Positions 20,167-53,658 of a DNA stretch of 64,000 nt are shown piece by piece. The DNA is from an uncultured Actinomycetota bacterium. Its GTDB lineage: Bacteria > Actinomycetota > Actinomycetes > JAFAQI01. The DNA lies in contig CAVYQE010000011.1 of NCBI GenBank assembly GCA_963770565.1, positions 640,001-704,000 of the forward strand. The letters run 5' to 3'. The notes under the pieces are model-generated. The model did not search any database, had not been told where the DNA came from, and saw nothing but the letters and a program-made list of their open reading frames with translations. The position numbers were made by a program, and so were the translations under genes. Position 1 is the stretch's first letter; each line of letters begins with the position of its first letter.

Positions 20167-20184
20167 CAGGGACTTAGGTCCCGA
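20167..20184. promoter_or_regulatory. DosR/DevR-type box
   Basis: GGGACTTAGGTCCC (20169-20182), 35 bp upstream of the ABC ATPase ATG. Confidence 0.75.
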
Positions 20185-20204
20185 TGAGGACGACGAAGGG
20201 CCGG

Positions 20205-22961
20205 TCACGCCGCGTTCGGCGCGGTCGGATGCCGGCGCCGGAGGACGGCACGGCGGATCTCGTCGGCGCCCCACACGATGAACGGGTACGGCGCGACGAT
20301 GGCCAGGTCGGTCAGAGGCAGCGCCGCCGTCCCGAAGGTCGAGTGCATGACCGGAAGGTAGACCAGGCCGAGCGCGAAGGCGATCGCGACGCCGACCCCG
20401 CCGAGGAGCGGGCGGTTGCTCAGTACGCCGACCGACCACAGTGAGGCGCGCTCGGTGCGAACCGCGAACGCGGTCCCGACCTGGCAGGCAACGACGCCGA
20501 GCCATGCCACCGTCGTCGCCCGGCGATAGGTGAGGTGCAGTGCGGAGCCGGTGCTGGTGGCCGCGCCGGGATGCCACCCGCCGTGACGCAGCACGAGGAA
20601 GAAGCCGAACATCGTCAGCGTGGCCGAGATCAAGCCCATGAAGCCCCAGGCCCGGACCAGGACGGCCCGGGTGATGACGTTCTCGCCGCGCGGACGGGGC
20701 GGGCGCTCCATCAGACCGGGCTCGGCCGGCTCACGACTGAGGGCGAGCGCAGGAAGGGTGTCGGTACCTAGGTCGATCGCGAGGACCTGCATGACGGTCA
20801 ACGGGATCGGCATCGCGCCGCCGGCGAGCGCGAAGGCGAGGAAGGGAACCACCTCGGGCACCGCGTGGGTGAAGATGTAGGTGATGAACTTCTGCACGTT
20901 GTTGTAGGCCCGCCGGCCGGCCTCGATCGCGCTCACGATGGTGGCGAAGTTGTCGTCGGTCAACACCATCGTTGCGGCTTCCCGCGCGACGTCGGTGCCG
21001 GAGGCTCCCATCGCGATTCCCACGTCCGCGCGCCGCAGCGCGGGCGCATCGTTCACGCCATCACCGGTCATGGCGACGACGTGACCGAGCGAACGCAGCG
21101 CGTCAGCGATCCGGAGCTTTGCCTCGGGCGAACTGCGCGCGAAGATGATCTCTTCCGGACCGCCCAGGGTGGCGTCGAGCTCGCTGTCGGTCATTGCTTC
21201 CAACTCGCGACCGGTGATCATCCGTCGCGCGCCGGTGCCGATCCCGACCCGCCGGGCGATCTCCGCCGCGGTCAGCGCATGGTCGCCGGTCACGACGTGG
21301 ATCCGGATGCCGGCTGCGTGGGCGCGCGCAACCGCGTCGGCGACCCCCTGTCGCGGCGGATCGAACATCGCCACCAGGCCCAGCAGCTCGAGGTTGATCT
21401 CCGCGTCCTGGCGGCCGATGTCCTCGGATCGGTCGATGGTGCGTTGCGCGATCGCGAGGACGCGGAGTCCTTGCCGGGCCCAGGCATCGACCTGGTGGTC
21501 GACGGCGTTGCGGTCGCTGGCGGTCAAACGGCGGATACCAGAACCGTCGTCGAGGTGGTTGCACAGCGGCAGCACGGTCTCGGGCGCACCCTTGGTATGC
21601 AGAACAAGCCGGCCCGAATCGTCGGCATCGAGCGTCGACATCCGGGCCAGCCGAACGTCGAAGGAAAAGCTCTGGCGGCGCTGCGCGTCACGCCGTACCG
21701 GAGCGAGCGGGACACCCGCCTGGGTAGCCAACTCCGCGATCGCGACCTCGGTCGGGTCGCCGACCGGCTTGCCGTTCTCACCGATTTGCACGGACGCGCA
21801 CCACGCGCCTGCAGCGGCGAGTTGCTGAACCAGGCGCGGCCACTCGGCCGGGAGCACGCCGCCCTCGAGGTCGAGCGAACCGGCCCCGGTCCACACGCCG
21901 ACCACTTGCATTCGGTTCTCGGTGAGGGTGCCGGTCTTGTCGGTGCAGATCACGCTCGTGGCACCGAGGGTCTCGACCGCCGACAGACGCTTGACGACCG
22001 CTCCGCGGCGGGCCAGGTCGCGGACGCCGACCGCGAGCGCCAGTGTGATCGTCGGCAGTAGGCCCTCTGGCACGTTGGCGACCAGCAGTCCGATCGAGAA
22101 GCTCAGCGCAGCGCCGAGGGTCAACCCCGCGGCGAGGCCGAGCGGCAGGAACGCAGTTGCCATGACGATGGCGACCGCGCCGATCAACAGGGCCACCCGC
22201 CGGACCTGCTGCTCGAGCGGCCCGATGTCGCGATCGACGCGGGCCGAGAGGGCCGCGATCCGGCCGAGTTCGGTGTGCATCCCGGTCGCCGTGACAACCG
22301 CGCGACCCGTACCCGACGTGCAACTGGTCCCGGTGAAGACGACGTCGGTCGCCTCGAGCAGCGGCACGTGTGGGTCTGCGTGACCGGCACTGCGGGTTAC
22401 CGGTTGCGACTCGCCGGTAAGGGTGGACATGTCGGCCTCGATCGCGCCGTCGACGAGGCGTCCGTCGGCGCTGATCCGTTCCCCTTCACCGATCAGTACG
22501 ACGTCACCGGGCACGAGGTCGCGGGCGTCGAGTTCCGTGACCATCCCGTCTCTCAGCGCTCTGGCTCGTGGTGGCAGGTAGGAAGCCAACGCCTCGACCG
22601 CACGTTCGGCCTGCATTTCTTGCGCGAACGCGAGGGCTGCGTTGATGAGAATCACGGCGACGATGGCGATGGCGAGCCGGGGAGTGCGGTTGATCAGTGA
22701 CAACGCTGCGGCCACCGCCAGCAGCAGCGCCAACGGGTGGGTGAACTGTGCGACCAACTCGGCCGGCCACTGCCTCGTCCGGCGCCGTGACAGTTCGTTC
22801 GCGCCGACCGCCAGTAGTCGGCGCTCCGCCTCGCGGGTCGACAGGCCGGCTCGCGATGTCCGGAGGTCGCGCAAGAGCGTGCTGAGCGGCTCGTGCGCGG
22901 CCTGGTCCGAGCTGAGCCCGGTGTGGATGCTCGCGAGCGGCGGTTGCGTGGTCGACGTCAC
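20205..22961 (-). CDS. Cation-transporting P-type ATPase (type II)
   Basis: [39 protein letters not shown] start after GGTGAGG. Confidence 0.95.
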
Positions 22962-22965
22962 GGCC

Positions 22966-23823
22966 TCACCCGTGACCCGCTCGGTCTGGTCGGACCCGGC
23001 CACCGCCCGCAACCCGGGCCCGGCTCCCGTGGCGGGCGCGATCAAGGAGGTTGACGAAGGTGTAGTGGTGGCTCTGATAGAAGCTGATGATCGCCGGTAG
23101 AGCCTGCACGGTGGCGGGCTCACCGCCTTCGGGGTCGTGCATGAGGATGACCGGGTGGGTCTGGCTGACTCCGGCCTCGGCCCGGGACGTGATCCGGTCG
23201 ACCCAGGAGGCGGACGCCGACCCCTCTGCCTTCCAGTCCTCGGTGTCGACCGACCAGAGCCAGACGGCGAGGTGCCGCTCGGCGGCGAGCTTGAGCGTGG
23301 TGTGGTCATACGTGCCGAACGGCGGGCGCAGCAGGCAGGGCATGGCGCCGACGAGGTGCTTCTGCTTCTTGCTGGTGCGGTCGAGCTCGCGTTCCTGTTC
23401 GGCCTGGCCGAGGTCGGCGAGGTCGTGATGGTCCCAGGTGTGGTTGCCGAGCGCGTCGCCGTCGGCGTACTCCCGGCGAAGCAACGACCGCCCGGCGTCC
23501 ATCTGTTCGCCGATGTTGAAGAACGTCGCGGTCACGTGGTGGAGCTTGAGGATGACGAGAATCTCCTTCGTGCTCCTACCCGGGCCGTCGTCGAAGGTGA
23601 GCGCGACCGTCCGGCCGGAGCCGGGCGCGGTGTGGCGTACTCGTTTCGAGGCCGGGCAGGTGTTTGCTCGCCGGACGGTCGGCAGCCGGGGGTGGGCGGA
23701 ACCCACCGCCCGGCTTGGAACGACCGGCGCGACGAGGGCCACGAGCGCGAGGATCAGCAGCCAGGGCAGGCGCCCGGCCGGGCGGAACATGTTCGGCAGG
23801 CTCCGGAAGGTCGGCGAGGTCAT
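22966..23823 (-). CDS. Secreted polysaccharide deacetylase (NodB/CE4)
   Basis: TFDDGP, HTWDH, RPPFG, DTEDW, LMHD. Confidence 0.93.
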
Positions 23824-23843
23824 GGTCGGCTTTCGGGTCGGGG

Positions 23844-52312: not shown

Positions 52313-53317
52313 ATGCCATCGAAGATCAGTCATTCCGACCTCAGCGAGTCGCAGGTCAACTGGGTGGTCAGTCAGGCGACCCGAGCACCATCGGTCTGCA
52401 ACACCCAGCCATGGCGGTTCCAGTGGGACGGCAAAACCTTCTCGTTGATCGCCGATCTTGGTCGTGGCCTGGTGGTCAGTGACCCGGTCGGCCGCGAACT
52501 TGTGATCAGTTGCGGGGCGGCGCTGTTCAACCTCCGGCTCGCTTTGCGGCATCTCGGGCTGCAGGGCCGGGTTCAGATCTTTCCCGACCGAAAGGACCCA
52601 CACCTGCTCGCGACCGTCGACGTTGTGGACGGGACTCCGATCGAGCCCGCCGAGAAGCGCTGGTTCACCGCGTTGCCGCGGCGGCACACCCACCGGACCC
52701 GGTTCAGCGATCGCCCGATGAGCCCGGCGCTCGCCGTACGACTGCAAGAGGCGGCGGAGTCAGAGGGTGCAGTTCTCGAGTACGTCCGCGACCCCGGCCC
52801 GACTCGCCGGATCCTGGACCTGGCCCGGACCGCTGAAGCGTTGCGCGCGAGTGATCCCGAGGCGCAGGCCGAGATGGCGCAGTGGACCCCGGAACCGAGC
52901 AGCGCCCGGCGCGACGGCGTACCCGCGCGCTCCTACAGTTCTGGCCCGCCGGCGGCAGGCCAGGGCGACCTTGCCGGTCGCGACTTCGACCTGGGTCGCG
53001 ACTTCGGCCGCGCCGAGCCCGAGCAGCAGCCACCGACCGCGATCGCGGCCCTTGTCACCGAGGGTGACCTTGCCCCCGACTGGCTCCAGGCCGGCCAAGC
53101 GCTCGAGGCGGTCTTGCTCGCCGCCGCGGCGGAGTGGTCGTTTGCTTCCATTCACAGTCGGATCACCGAGGTTCCCAACCTGCGGGCCGAGTTGCGGCGC
53201 GAACTTGCCACCGCCGGTTATCCGCAGCTCCTCCTTCGGTTCGGCTACGCCGAGGCCACGGCGACCACCCCGCGCCGCCCGACCGCGGAGGTCATCGACC
53301 TCACCGCGCGAGCCTGA
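52313..53317 (+). CDS. Acg family FMN-binding nitroreductase-like protein
   Basis: APSVCNTQPW, DPVGRELVISCGAALFNL, RRHTHR, DGVP, WLQAGQAL, PQLLLRFGY, TPRRP. Confidence 0.93.
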   Translation: MPSKISHSDLSESQVNWVVSQATRAPSVCNTQPWRFQWDGKTFSLIADLGRGLVVSDPVGRELVISCGAALFNLRLALRHLGLQGRVQIFPDRKDPHLLATVDVVDGTPIEPAEKRWFTALPRRHTHRTRFSDRPMSPALAVRLQEAAESEGAVLEYVRDPGPTRRILDLARTAEALRASDPEAQAEMAQWTPEPSSARRDGVPARSYSSGPPAAGQGDLAGRDFDLGRDFGRAEPEQQPPTAIAALVTEGDLAPDWLQAGQALEAVLLAAAAEWSFASIHSRITEVPNLRAELRRELATAGYPQLLLRFGYAEATATTPRRPTAEVIDLTARA

Positions 53318-53352
53318 TCAAAGCTGGTCAGGGCCCGGCTGACTATGCGCAG

Positions 53353-53389
53353 TGGGGACCTTCGGCCCTACCCGTCCAGCAGGTCCCGA
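53353..53389. promoter_or_regulatory. Tandem DosR/DevR-type boxes
   Basis: GGGACCTTCGGCCC (53355-53368) and GTCCAGCAGGTCCC (53374-53387). Confidence 0.75.
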
Positions 53390-53430
53390 TCTGAAACTTG
53401 GTGAGCGGAGCCCACCGAGGAGTGTGAGCA

Positions 53431-53658
53431 ATGAGCGTTGCGCAGCAGACCCAACTTCGTGACGACACGCTCGACCTCGTCAGCCGCTTGGTCCTGGAGT
53501 ACGACGGACGGGTTCCGCCGGCCGTGGTGATCCGTTGCCTTTCACAGGTCCGCTGGGAACTGCAGGCGGTTGGACTCCACGATGACCTGATCGATCTCAC
53601 CGAGCAGCGCGCGCGGATGCGGCTGGACGATCGGCCCGGAGCACGCGGCGCCGCCTGA
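53431..53658 (+). CDS. Small helical protein, paralog of 35899-36108
   Basis: GAGGAG RBS; LV..L..EY...V....V..C....RW.L...G..DDLI..TE..AR. Confidence 0.8.
   Translation: MSVAQQTQLRDDTLDLVSRLVLEYDGRVPPAVVIRCLSQVRWELQAVGLHDDLIDLTEQRARMRLDDRPGARGAA

Follow-up and report, generated by a model that had tools for sequence, protein, structure and literature searches.

The DevR(DosR)–DevS/DosT system of Mycobacterium tuberculosis is the closest described counterpart of the locus reported here. It joins a NarL-family regulator to a haem-GAF kinase, and its promoters are described in Chauhan 2011 (PMC3177182) as all being marked by tandem boxes in helical phase. Its targets, named after Table 1 of that paper, include the Acg family, DUF1918 (the Rv0569 family), a gene of the Rv2005c–Rv2004c type and the P-type ATPase gene ctpF. 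Outside the mycobacteria, Streptomyces coelicolor has a DevR orthologue in OsdR/OsdK, with stress genes clustered around the regulator and a 16-nt palindrome, AGGGCCGATCGGCCCT, similar to the Dev box (PMC5069765); the main text of that paper makes no mention of an ATPase, ATP synthase, ferredoxin oxidoreductase, phosphoketolase or acetate kinase. The aerobe Burkholderia cenocepacia carries the co-regulated low-oxygen locus lxa (PMC3721108), with genes for acetate kinase, polysaccharide deacetylase, a cation-transporting ATPase, ABC transporters, a nitroreductase, a metal-dependent RNase and USPs (Table 4 of that paper). Unlike the region described below, lxa is proteobacterial, has regulators of the Anr/CRP type listed within the locus and is without Dev boxes, and no rotary ATPase is listed for it there.

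Here we analyse a 33-kb region (20167-53658) within a 64-kb stretch of DNA, the window, from a soil actinobacterium, and propose that it is probably one part of a DevR/DosR regulon. It shares with the M. tuberculosis system the regulator type and recognition helix, the haem-GAF kinase, the palindrome and its tandem arrangement (about 21 bp from box to box), and the Acg, DUF1918, Rv2004c-type and P-type ATPase targets. It differs in having two DevR paralogues, encoded on a different contig from the region, and in targets that include a V/A-type ATPase, a multi-subunit 2-oxoacid:ferredoxin oxidoreductase (POR) with a flavoprotein, and a second GAPDH paired with an aldolase; no such target is among the promoter-table entries of PMC3177182 that were compared. 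This is not a new kind of system; it is a known switch with a new gene set, in which a DosR-type box stands before a second rotary ATPase, an oxygen-sensitive and probably pyruvate-oxidising enzyme, and a spare glycolysis pair.

The first-pass annotation had found neither devR nor devS in the window, which is correct; both types of gene are located on another contig of the genome. Two DevR paralogues match M. tuberculosis DevR (PDB 3c3w) with E values of 1.4e-79 and 8.5e-79, and the recognition helix AEKTVKNYVS is identical in all three proteins. The DevS-like haem-GAF kinase (578 aa) has the architecture GAF-GAF-HisKA_3-HATPase, and its GAF-A domain matches DosT/DevS at E 1e-48 to 1e-50. Box matches outside the window cluster at C1:975-1020 kb, around devS and the two devR genes, together with genes for USPs, Acg-like nitroreductases, CBS proteins, cydA, arginine deiminase and OTC. 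The cydA box is the top match of the genome (22.8 bits). Both devR operons have boxes upstream, one at 982472 (15.2 bits) and a pair at 1009034 and 1009056, 22 bp apart; USPs and an autoregulated devR are likewise features of the M. tuberculosis regulon.

Within the region, all 13 palindromes reported earlier were re-read at their positions with the sequences described, each upstream of a gene start and 30–100 nt from it. Our scoring matrix was built from these same 13 sites, so scores within the window are circular; the non-circular tests are the enrichment in gaps, the enrichment of the published core and everything beyond the window. That the palindrome occupies most gaps is barely true, since 8 of the 14 gaps in 20167-53658 hold at least one box of at least 13 bits. 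The tandem pairs, said to lie 19-22 bp apart, are all four real: 43673 with 43694 (21 bp), 43988 with 44010 and 52151 with 52173 (22 bp each), and 53355 with 53374 (19 bp). Three of the 13 are weak or half-sites, at 43694 (9.2 bits), 43988 (7.5 bits) and 53374 (6.3 bits), each being the second box of its pair, and reading of the 20-mers shows the key G and C kept in both half-sites at 10 of the 13. Genome-wide, the offset of second boxes near primary sites peaks at 22 bp, and five tandem pairs of the 22-bp type lie beyond the window. No consistent −10 element was found at a fixed distance from the boxes.

One explanation for such sites is chance matching in GC-rich DNA. It is consistent with the behaviour of the strict core, GGGACN4GTCCC with at most one mismatch, which is not enriched in the 64-kb window as a whole: 5 matches occur where 7.08 would be expected, and 82 shuffles in 100 have at least as many. 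All five matches are intergenic. The 16 gaps of 18281-55809 (3582 nt including flanks) argue otherwise: 12 sites agree with the core at 8 or more of its 10 positions, whereas shuffles give 4.55 ± 2.08 (12 reached in 4 of 1000), and 4 sites agree at 9 or more, against 0.35 (1 of 1000). Core density is 3.35 per kb in the gaps of the region, 0.69 in the other non-coding DNA of the genome and 0.58 in coding DNA, making the region's intergenic DNA about five-fold richer in the motif than the remaining intergenic DNA. With at most one mismatch allowed, the consensus core given in Letek 2010 (Table S6, legend), GGGHCNWWNGNCCCB, has 32 strand-matches in the window compared with 15.5 ± 4.9, and not one of 100 shuffles gets as far as 32. 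The expected enrichment over background was thus borne out in the gaps and with the published core, but not for the strict core over the whole window. Beyond the window, 12 of the 15 matrix matches of at least 16 bits are not deep in coding DNA, whereas 68% of the genome is; C2:673069 is among the top-scoring. Gap enrichment, consensus-core enrichment and the positional conservation of boxes at V/A-ATPase and POR loci, across dozens of other genomes (below), contradict chance matching, to which we attach almost no credence.

Alternatively, the palindromes might be sites for some other regulator, for example another member of the LuxR/NarL family, or they might be structural (terminator hairpins or REP-like repeats). 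Hairpins can form from GC-rich 5+4+5 palindromes, and the published core is also matched by an unrelated dispersed repeat of this genome, CGTGGGCCnATnGCCCCACC, and by the palindrome GGGCCGAAAGGCCC at 39149-39162, which is ambiguous between box and hairpin and scores below 9 bits with the window matrix. In addition, the site at 20169 lies 23 nt past the stop codon of the P-type ATPase gene. Most sites, however, precede gene starts or belong to promoter regions shared by divergent genes, and do not follow genes; their spacer is A/T-rich, G6 is kept in 25 and C8 in 23 of 26 half-sites, and paired boxes prefer the 22-bp spacing. The target genes moreover overlap the M. tuberculosis regulon. We therefore consider this explanation improbable, and the earlier assignment of the palindrome as a DosR/DevR-type box holds up, given the enrichment of the published core, the DevR recognition helix identical to that of M. 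tuberculosis, and the same boxes flanking devR and devS.

The divergent control region 25156..25296 contains two Dev boxes. The box at 25277-25296 (17.5 bits) stands 69.5 nt upstream of the start, at 25356, of a complete plus-strand V/A-type ATPase operon (25356..32980) encoding the G-like stator (25356-25805), C/d (25802-26725), I/a (26676-28106), K/c (28097-28537), F (28534-28755), E (28752-29258), A (29243-30967), B (30964-32367) and D (within 32054-32980). This subunit set is that of bacterial V/A-type ATPases, from which the enzyme differs in its patchy actinomycete lineage (4 of 40 relatives hold it), its short I subunit (476 aa), its extended K subunit and the Dev boxes in front. The 82-aa N-terminal extension of K is not conserved; a single ATP-synt_C hairpin follows (aa 83-142 of 146), giving one carboxylate per two helices. 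The box at 25156-25175 (16.8 bits) faces a probable minus-strand operon (20205..25118, as judged from strand and small gaps), with genes for a protein of unknown family (24690-25118), a PG_binding+YkuD protein (23962-24693), a polysaccharide deacetylase (22966-23928) and, last, a P2-type cation ATPase (ORF 20205-23309, domains from aa 139), whose best NCBIfam model is the PMR1-type Ca ATPase, with a score below the model cut-off. Beyond this operon, the box CCAGGGACTTAGGTCCCGAT (20166..20185; 21.7 bits) has its centre 38.5 nt upstream of the start of a minus-strand membrane-protein gene (18827..20137) with a weak ABC-2 match (PF12698, E 2.3e-4, below cut-off).

Both boxes of this control region are kept in the same-genus genome G003. 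Across 80 actinomycete V/A-ATPase loci, matches of at least 13 bits are concentrated 3.5-4.5 kb ahead of the A gene, at the operon promoter; among the 68 loci with this region covered, 22 have such a box, against none of 68 in either of two control windows. Only the count at 13 bits is discriminating here: once the threshold drops to 11 bits, matches also turn up at 14 of 68 loci in one of the control windows, which lies inside the V operon. Boxes in front of the operon reach 18.6 bits in G037 and 16.4 bits in G036, and cultured holders of a boxed V/A-ATPase have a DevR relative of 58-68% identity in four of five cases and 44% in the fifth. The 33-kb gene combination highlighted by the first-pass annotation is lineage-specific and not a conserved unit: at 80 other actinomycete loci, partner genes seldom lie 10 kb or less from the V/A-ATPase (P2-ATPase 11, Acg-like 6, DUF1918 6, Rv2004c-like 5, aldolase 3, GAPDH 1, Xfp 0, Ack 0).

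The POR operon (39204..43710, minus strand) encodes gamma (43025-43612), alpha (41830-43032), beta (40829-41833) and a GltD-like Fe-S flavoprotein (39204 to ~40730) with a PorD-like C-terminal ferredoxin domain, behind tandem boxes at 43670-43689 (16.6 bits) and 43691-43710 (9.2 bits). The best models for alpha, beta and gamma are pyruvate synthase PorA, PorB and PorC, with the PorA and PorB equivalog cut-offs not reached and gamma passing the PorC_KorC subfamily cut-off only; the substrate is probably pyruvate. In joining a multi-subunit OFOR to a GltD-like flavoprotein, the operon resembles the PadEFGHI-type NADH-dependent phenylglyoxylate dehydrogenase (NCBIfam names), whose models alpha, beta and gamma match at E 4e-79, 3e-58 and 6e-48; it differs in that the Por models are best and the delta ferredoxin is fused to the flavoprotein. 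Of 17 other genomes, 12 have a box of at least 9 bits immediately ahead of gamma, 620-745 nt from the alpha start, and in 5 of the 17 it reaches at least 13 bits. These genomes are not all independent, as G177 and G114, and likewise G082 and G132, share the same POR box.

A box at 38223-38242 (14.1 bits) lies 65.5 nt upstream of the second-copy GAPDH gene (37160-38167), which is followed by a DhnA-type class I aldolase gene (36232-37179), both on the minus strand. Elsewhere, a box of at least 11 bits occurs within 150 nt upstream of GAPDH at 6 of the 14 loci that match best, compared with 1 of the 15 that come next. Loci without a clear box number 46 of the 68 for the V/A-ATPase and 5 of the 17 for POR, and G028 lacks one too (best score 3.4 bits); the link between box and these units is therefore frequent in other genomes, not universal. 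Box enrichment, the regulator genes and box conservation at the V/A-ATPase, POR and GAPDH together make the regulatory reading well supported at the level of sequence. The minus-strand, translationally coupled xfp (46635-49040) and ack (start ~46633, end 45601) have no Dev box upstream (best score 4.8 bits, window matrix), although they would be the step that yields ATP most directly; the first-pass annotation had noted only half-sites before xfp. The proposed union of fermentation kit and ATPases in one DosR-type regulon is therefore supported by boxes for the V/A-ATPase, the P2-ATPase operon, GAPDH-aldolase and POR-flavoprotein, and not for xfp-ack.

The dormancy genes anticipated as members also carry boxes. 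A minus-strand DUF1918 gene (43732-43929) and a divergent, Rv2004c-type APH+AAA_33 gene (44097-45665, plus strand) share tandem boxes at 43985-44004 (7.5 bits) and 44007-44026 (16.3 bits). An MBL-fold hydrolase gene (51332-52081, minus strand, then 50614-51276) and a divergent Acg-family FMN oxidoreductase gene (52211-53317, plus strand) share those at 52148-52167 (14.3 bits) and 52170-52189 (13.0 bits). A 75-aa plus-strand ORF of an unnamed small-protein family (53431-53658) follows a pair at 53352-53371 (16.0 bits) and 53371-53390 (6.3 bits, half-site).

We propose that the DevS-like kinase would sense low O2, NO or CO and phosphorylate one or both DevR paralogues. DevR~P would then bind the palindromes, which span 18-20 bp, are often paired at a distance of 21-22 bp and stand 30-100 nt upstream of start codons, and switch on about ten transcription units in the region: the V/A-type rotary ATPase, the operon ending in the P2-type ATPase, the second GAPDH with the class I aldolase, the oxidoreductase, whose ferredoxin-flavoprotein would hand electrons to NAD(P), and the classic dormancy genes (Acg-family, DUF1918, Rv2004c-like, MBL hydrolase and the small-protein family). 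Hypoxia may thus turn on oxygen-independent carbon oxidation, while the second rotary machine would keep up ion gradients or ATP. The earlier suggestion, that a presumably aerobic lineage would make ATP by fermentation, perhaps with acetate as product, and spend it on ion pumping, is one possible form of this physiology.

Bacterial V/A-type ATPases work in either direction, that of Thermus thermophilus as a synthase and that of Enterococcus hirae as a Na+ pump. The same regulon could follow a reversed energy logic, with the DevR-controlled enzyme acting as an ATP synthase for low proton-motive force during oxygen-limited respiration, for example with cytochrome bd, and not consuming fermentative ATP. 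Its c subunit, with one hairpin and one carboxylate per two helices, resembles that of the ATP-synthesising Thermus enzyme more than the c subunits of dedicated pumps, which have four helices; the genome's highest-scoring box precedes cydA, which would make residual respiration part of the programme; and xfp-ack is unboxed. Yet the genome still has an F-type enzyme, seen at C1:1289305 as a 29% match to the A subunit, and a second rotary ATPase beside an F-type enzyme is usually a pump in bacteria. The P2-type cation pump and ABC exporters also appear to be co-regulated divergently from the same control region. Synthesis is the less likely direction, with ATP-driven pumping only slightly favoured.

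Other genes complete the map. An ABC ATPase gene lies at 38297-39115 (minus strand), next to the ambiguous palindrome at 39149-39162. The minus-strand ABC-2 exporter pair (32977..34769; permease 32977-33801, ATPase 33798-34769) is without its own box, and its upstream region holds an IS630-family insertion (34788..35916, plus strand) with a DDE_3 transposase (34846-35916) and 29-nt inverted repeats (34788-34816 and 35888-35916). The box at 36164-36183 (17.2 bits) was considered as a target-less site behind the aldolase gene; this was rejected, as a small minus-strand gene (~36108 to 35899), missed previously and a paralogue of the 75-aa ORF, lies downstream, its likely start about 65 nt from the box centre.

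The 33-kb island at window positions 20167–53658 lies in a genome of 4.43 Mb (11 contigs, about 69% G+C) and is, on well-supported grounds, a real instance of the known DevR/DosR regulon type, whose extension into bioenergetics is moderately interesting and testable. All 13 DosR/DevR-type palindromes (Dev boxes) that the first-pass annotation had placed in the island are present at their assigned positions. Enrichment of the motif over background, without which it had held the reading to be refuted, was borne out for intergenic DNA and for the published consensus but not for the strict core across the window, where five matches with at most one mismatch, each of them intergenic, compare with 7.08 expected. 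The island has 3.6 kb of intergenic DNA, and 12 sites there keep at least 8 of 10 core positions, against 4.55 in shuffled sequence (4 of 1,000 shuffles reach 12), and four keep at least 9 of 10, against 0.35 (1 of 1,000). Core density there is 3.35 per kb, compared with 0.69 per kb in the other non-coding DNA of the genome. The core of the published consensus NNNGGGHCNWWNGNCCCBNN, which the legend to Table S6 of Letek 2010 gives with the central W-W included, has 32 strand-matches in the window versus 15.5 ± 4.9, a count reached by none of 100 shuffles. Of the 26 symmetrised half-sites, 25 keep G6 and 23 keep C8, and both halves are kept in 10 of the 13 sites as read by eye. Two other approaches were set aside: scoring with an A/T-weighted 20-mer consensus was noisy and uninformative, and exact-dyad enumeration was too strict for a degenerate motif.

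Scored with a symmetrised 20-bp matrix built from the 13 window sites (12.1 bits), 8 of the 14 intergenic gaps of the island carry a box of at least 13 bits, which narrowly bears out the description of boxes in most gaps. The centres of the proximal boxes lie 31.5–80.5 nt upstream of a start codon, several of them at 65–70 nt. The box at 36167, downstream of an aldolase gene, precedes a small minus-strand gene, with its centre about 65 nt from the start, and every box in the island has a predicted target gene. A −10 hexamer at fixed spacing was seen near the boxes in one case out of 11, with no consistent element. A further strong box (624–643, 20.7 bits) lies outside the island and is centred 35.5 nt ahead of a UDP-glucose/GDP-mannose dehydrogenase-family gene (C11:639207–640598, minus strand).

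The genes between 18 and 56 kb were annotated with Pfam and NCBIfam. Beyond a weak ABC-2-like membrane protein (18827–20137, minus), a minus-strand run begins with a protein of unknown family (24690–25118), continues through a PG_binding+YkuD protein and a polysaccharide deacetylase, and ends with a P2-type cation ATPase (ORF 20205–23309). The V/A-type rotary ATPase operon follows on the plus strand (25356–32980) with genes for G-like, C/d, I/a, K/c, F, E, A, B and D subunits. Beyond an ABC-2 exporter pair (32977–34769, minus) and an IS630-family element with 29-nt inverted repeats (34788–35916), the minus strand carries the small boxed gene (about 36108 to 35899), a class I aldolase and GAPDH (36232–38167), an ABC ATPase (38297–39115), a 2-oxoacid:ferredoxin oxidoreductase (POR) operon (39204–43612), in which gamma, alpha and beta genes precede one for a GltD-like Fe-S flavoprotein with a PorD-like C-terminus, and a DUF1918 gene (43732–43929). 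An APH+AAA_33 protein (44097–45665, plus), a putative Rv2004c orthologue, is followed by phosphoketolase and acetate kinase genes (xfp-ack; 45601–49040, minus), two proteins of unknown family and an HTTM protein, an MBL-fold hydrolase (51332–52081, minus), an Acg-family oxidoreductase (52211–53317, plus) and a 75-aa ORF (53431–53658, plus). An Rfam scan of the window found no RNA families. Among the predicted targets, the Acg-family gene (NF047509, 292 bits; cut-off 199), the DUF1918 gene (E = 2.9e-27) and the P2-type ATPase represent families of the known regulon.

A search of the genome for a DevR orthologue, whose absence had been named as a ground for abandoning the regulon, found two NarL-family matches on contig C1. 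The two paralogues (C1:1007358–1008017 and C1:981302–982003, both minus) match PDB 3c3w over their full length (E = 1.4e-79 and 8.5e-79), and in both the recognition helix AEKTVKNYVS..LAKLG.ERRTQAAV is identical to that of Mycobacterium tuberculosis DevR. Nearby, a 578-aa DevS-like kinase (C1:1010721–1012457, plus) has the domain order GAF-GAF-HisKA_3-HATPase_c, and its GAF-A domain matches DosT 2vzw (E = 7.7e-50) and DevS 2y8h (E = 1.7e-48), making it a putative haem-GAF sensor of the DevS/DosT type. These genes belong to a Dev-box locus larger than that of the window (C1:975000–1020400; L009, L010), which holds devS, the two devR paralogues, a PAS-HisKA_3 fragment, Acg-like nitroreductases, a pyridoxamine-oxidase-fold protein, USPs and CBS proteins (the last two again known-regulon families among the targets), a boxed cydA, ADH, an arginine deiminase–OTC–permease set and ABC-2 exporters, as well as a gene fusion of GNAT and NDP-forming acyl-CoA synthetase, whose box scores 19.3 bits. 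Boxes also lie upstream of both devR operons. The predicted regulation is probably the standard circuit, in which DevS phosphorylates DevR and DevR~P activates from Dev boxes.

Many of the matrix hits outside the window fall in this C1 locus. None of the six hits of at least 18 bits lies deep in coding DNA, and 3 of the 15 of at least 16 bits do, compared with 68% of the genome. The third-best hit (C2:673069, 21.0 bits), which has an MshC-like ligase gene on one side and a Pyr_redox_2 gene on the other, could mark a promoter under dual regulation or be a false positive. A matrix trained instead on zero-mismatch matches to the published core outside the window recovered only the strongest window sites and was rejected as contaminated by a dispersed repeat, CGTGGGCCnATnGCCCCACC. 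This repeat has at least 10 copies in the genome, some in tandem 31 bp apart (for example C1:727852, C1:727883 and C11:905086–905148); it matches the published DosR core by chance and can contaminate consensus-based scans.

Box spacing was also compared with that of the known regulon. Pairs 19–22 bp apart occur at four of the nine boxed control regions of the window and one recognisable box at the others, counts that cover recognisable boxes only because cryptic second sites are not recognisable from sequence. Genome-wide, second boxes near primary sites peak at an offset of 22 bp, with five such pairs outside the window, and V/A promoters of other taxa have a second box at 22–23 bp in 5 of 32 cases. 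In M. tuberculosis, Chauhan et al. (PMC3177182) describe tandem, helically phased Dev boxes (about 21 bp) at all DevR promoters, an arrangement that the 22-bp peak would fit.

The V/A operon provides the broadest comparative evidence. Subunit A passes its model well above threshold (NF003220, 648.6 bits; cut-off 470), B, D, E, F and I are also present, and K matches PF00137 (E = 4.7e-16); the C/AC39 match and that of the G-like protein (E = 0.058) are weak. Judged by these matches, the predicted subunit set is complete, including catalytic A and B and the proteolipid. The K (c) subunit (28097–28537) has one proteolipid hairpin after an 82-aa hydrophobic N-terminal extension; two of its five top-listed matches align over the full length (74 loci have any match), and the median alignment spans no more than the last 36 aa at the C-terminus. 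At 476 aa, the I subunit is short.

Close orthologues of subunit A occur in 4 of 40 related genomes, and at 62–78% identity in at least 80 loci, from Cellulomonas, Pedococcus, Phycicoccus, Ornithinibacter, Nocardioides, Actinoallomurus, Streptosporangiaceae, Nocardia, Streptomyces, Lentzea and Mycobacterium-labelled MAGs. Hits of at least 13 bits concentrate 3.5–4.5 kb before the A gene, that is, at the operon promoter, with 22 in two 500-bp bins versus 0–5 per bin elsewhere. Such a box lies in the promoter region of 22 of the 68 covered loci and in none of the 68 in each of two equal-sized intra-operon control windows. At 11 bits or more the counts are 32 loci versus 14 and 1 in the controls, so that this threshold discriminates poorly. 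Among the comparison genomes, G037 and G036 have boxes of 18.6 and 16.4 bits upstream of the V/A operon and G028 has none there; of five cultured holders, four have a DevR relative (58–68% identity). Related genomes share ancestry, so these counts, and those for POR and GAPDH below, overstate the number of independent events.

Within the class, POR is present in 18 of 301 genomes. Set against the four-subunit pyruvate:ferredoxin oxidoreductase, the enzyme of the island has alpha, beta and gamma subunits, with PorA, PorB and PorC as best models; all miss the equivalog cut-offs, and gamma passes the PorC_KorC subfamily cut-off. For delta there is solely the C-terminal flavoprotein domain (TIGR02179, 54.7 bits, below the cut-off of 60.05). 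Directly upstream of the gamma gene, 620–745 nt before the alpha start, 12 of 17 other genomes have a box of at least 9 bits and 5 of 17 one of at least 13 bits. In two of the five without a POR box (G131 and G173), GAPDH lies directly upstream of POR and a box lies ahead of GAPDH. The host has two GAPDH copies; a box of at least 11 bits occurs within 150 nt upstream of GAPDH in 6 of the 14 best-matching loci elsewhere, versus 1 of the next 15. A perfect palindrome, GGGCCGAAAGGCCC (39149–39162), sits in the gap that separates the flavoprotein stop from the start of the ABC ATPase and may be either a Dev box or the hairpin of a terminator.

The 33-kb gene set is lineage-specific rather than a conserved unit: within 10 kb of V/A in 80 loci, its partners are rare (P2-ATPase 11, Acg-like 6, DUF1918 6, Rv2004c-like 5, aldolase 3, GAPDH 1, and Xfp and Ack 0). 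A place for xfp-ack in the regulon is not supported: its upstream region (49041–49194) has no Dev box, the best score being 4.8 bits. The xfp and ack genes themselves are intact, and ack begins at the xfp stop; four papers in the open-access literature searched mention both DosR and phosphoketolase, and one of these does not place xfp in the DosR regulon. Acetate kinase (45601–46640) has a shortened N-terminal segment, its Pfam and NCBIfam matches beginning at profile positions 82–87.

Dormancy research has long asked how actinomycetes that are obligately or mainly aerobic maintain their energy supply when starved of oxygen, and the conserved placement of boxes points to concrete energy-conserving hardware within the regulon. 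Regulator and box are textbook; what seems new is the conserved box ahead of a second rotary ATPase, a POR–flavoprotein complex and a spare GAPDH. Low oxygen would switch the cell to oxygen-sensitive 2-oxoacid oxidation, electrons from POR would pass through the fused ferredoxin–flavoprotein to NAD(P), and the private lower-glycolysis pair (GAPDH and aldolase) and the cation pumps would join this metabolic part. We offer as a tentative idea, one we consider rather unlikely as it stands, that the patchy actinomycete V/A-type ATPase is specialised for hypoxia and that DevR controls it directly in many genera (among them Pedococcus, Phycicoccus, Ornithinibacter, Actinoallomurus, some Nocardia, Streptomyces and Mycobacterium-like MAGs), switching it on together with the oxygen-sensitive POR and the private GAPDH; it would then keep up membrane potential or make ATP in non-growing aerobic actinomycetes when respiration fails. 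If the idea is true, the dormancy regulon has in the V/A-ATPase a bioenergetic arm that is absent from M. tuberculosis. As to the direction in which the V/A-ATPase would run, the single-hairpin c subunit and the boxed cydA would fit a low-PMF ATP synthase, whereas an ATP-driven pump would fit the retention of an F-type enzyme and the divergent co-regulation of the P2-type pump. Several cultured, harmless soil genera share the arrangement, which makes it directly testable at the bench.

Among known systems, the M. tuberculosis DevR regulon and Streptomyces OsdR come nearest. The Burkholderia lxa locus, functionally analogous and strikingly similar in its genes, has different regulators. Comparative-genomics work on DosR regulons (Gerasimova 2011) may hold an earlier prediction of these targets; in the open-access literature searched we found no paper joining DosR/DevR with a V-type ATPase.

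The small boxed gene (about 36108–35899, minus) is a paralogue of the 75-aa ORF at 53431–53658 (plus): the two proteins share 40% identity over 60 aa (E = 7e-12), and each gene lies behind a Dev box. Counting the host, 8 of 41 related genomes have members of their family, with up to three copies each. The family matched no Pfam model, and the ESM Atlas gave PF21234 as a weak lead for the 75-aa protein (score 0.84). The IS630-family element separates the ABC-2 exporter operon from the small boxed gene, and its right inverted repeat overlaps the 3′ end of that gene. In the same-genus genome G003, both the element and the exporter are missing at the corresponding spot, and the aldolase–GAPDH pair adjoins the V/A operon.
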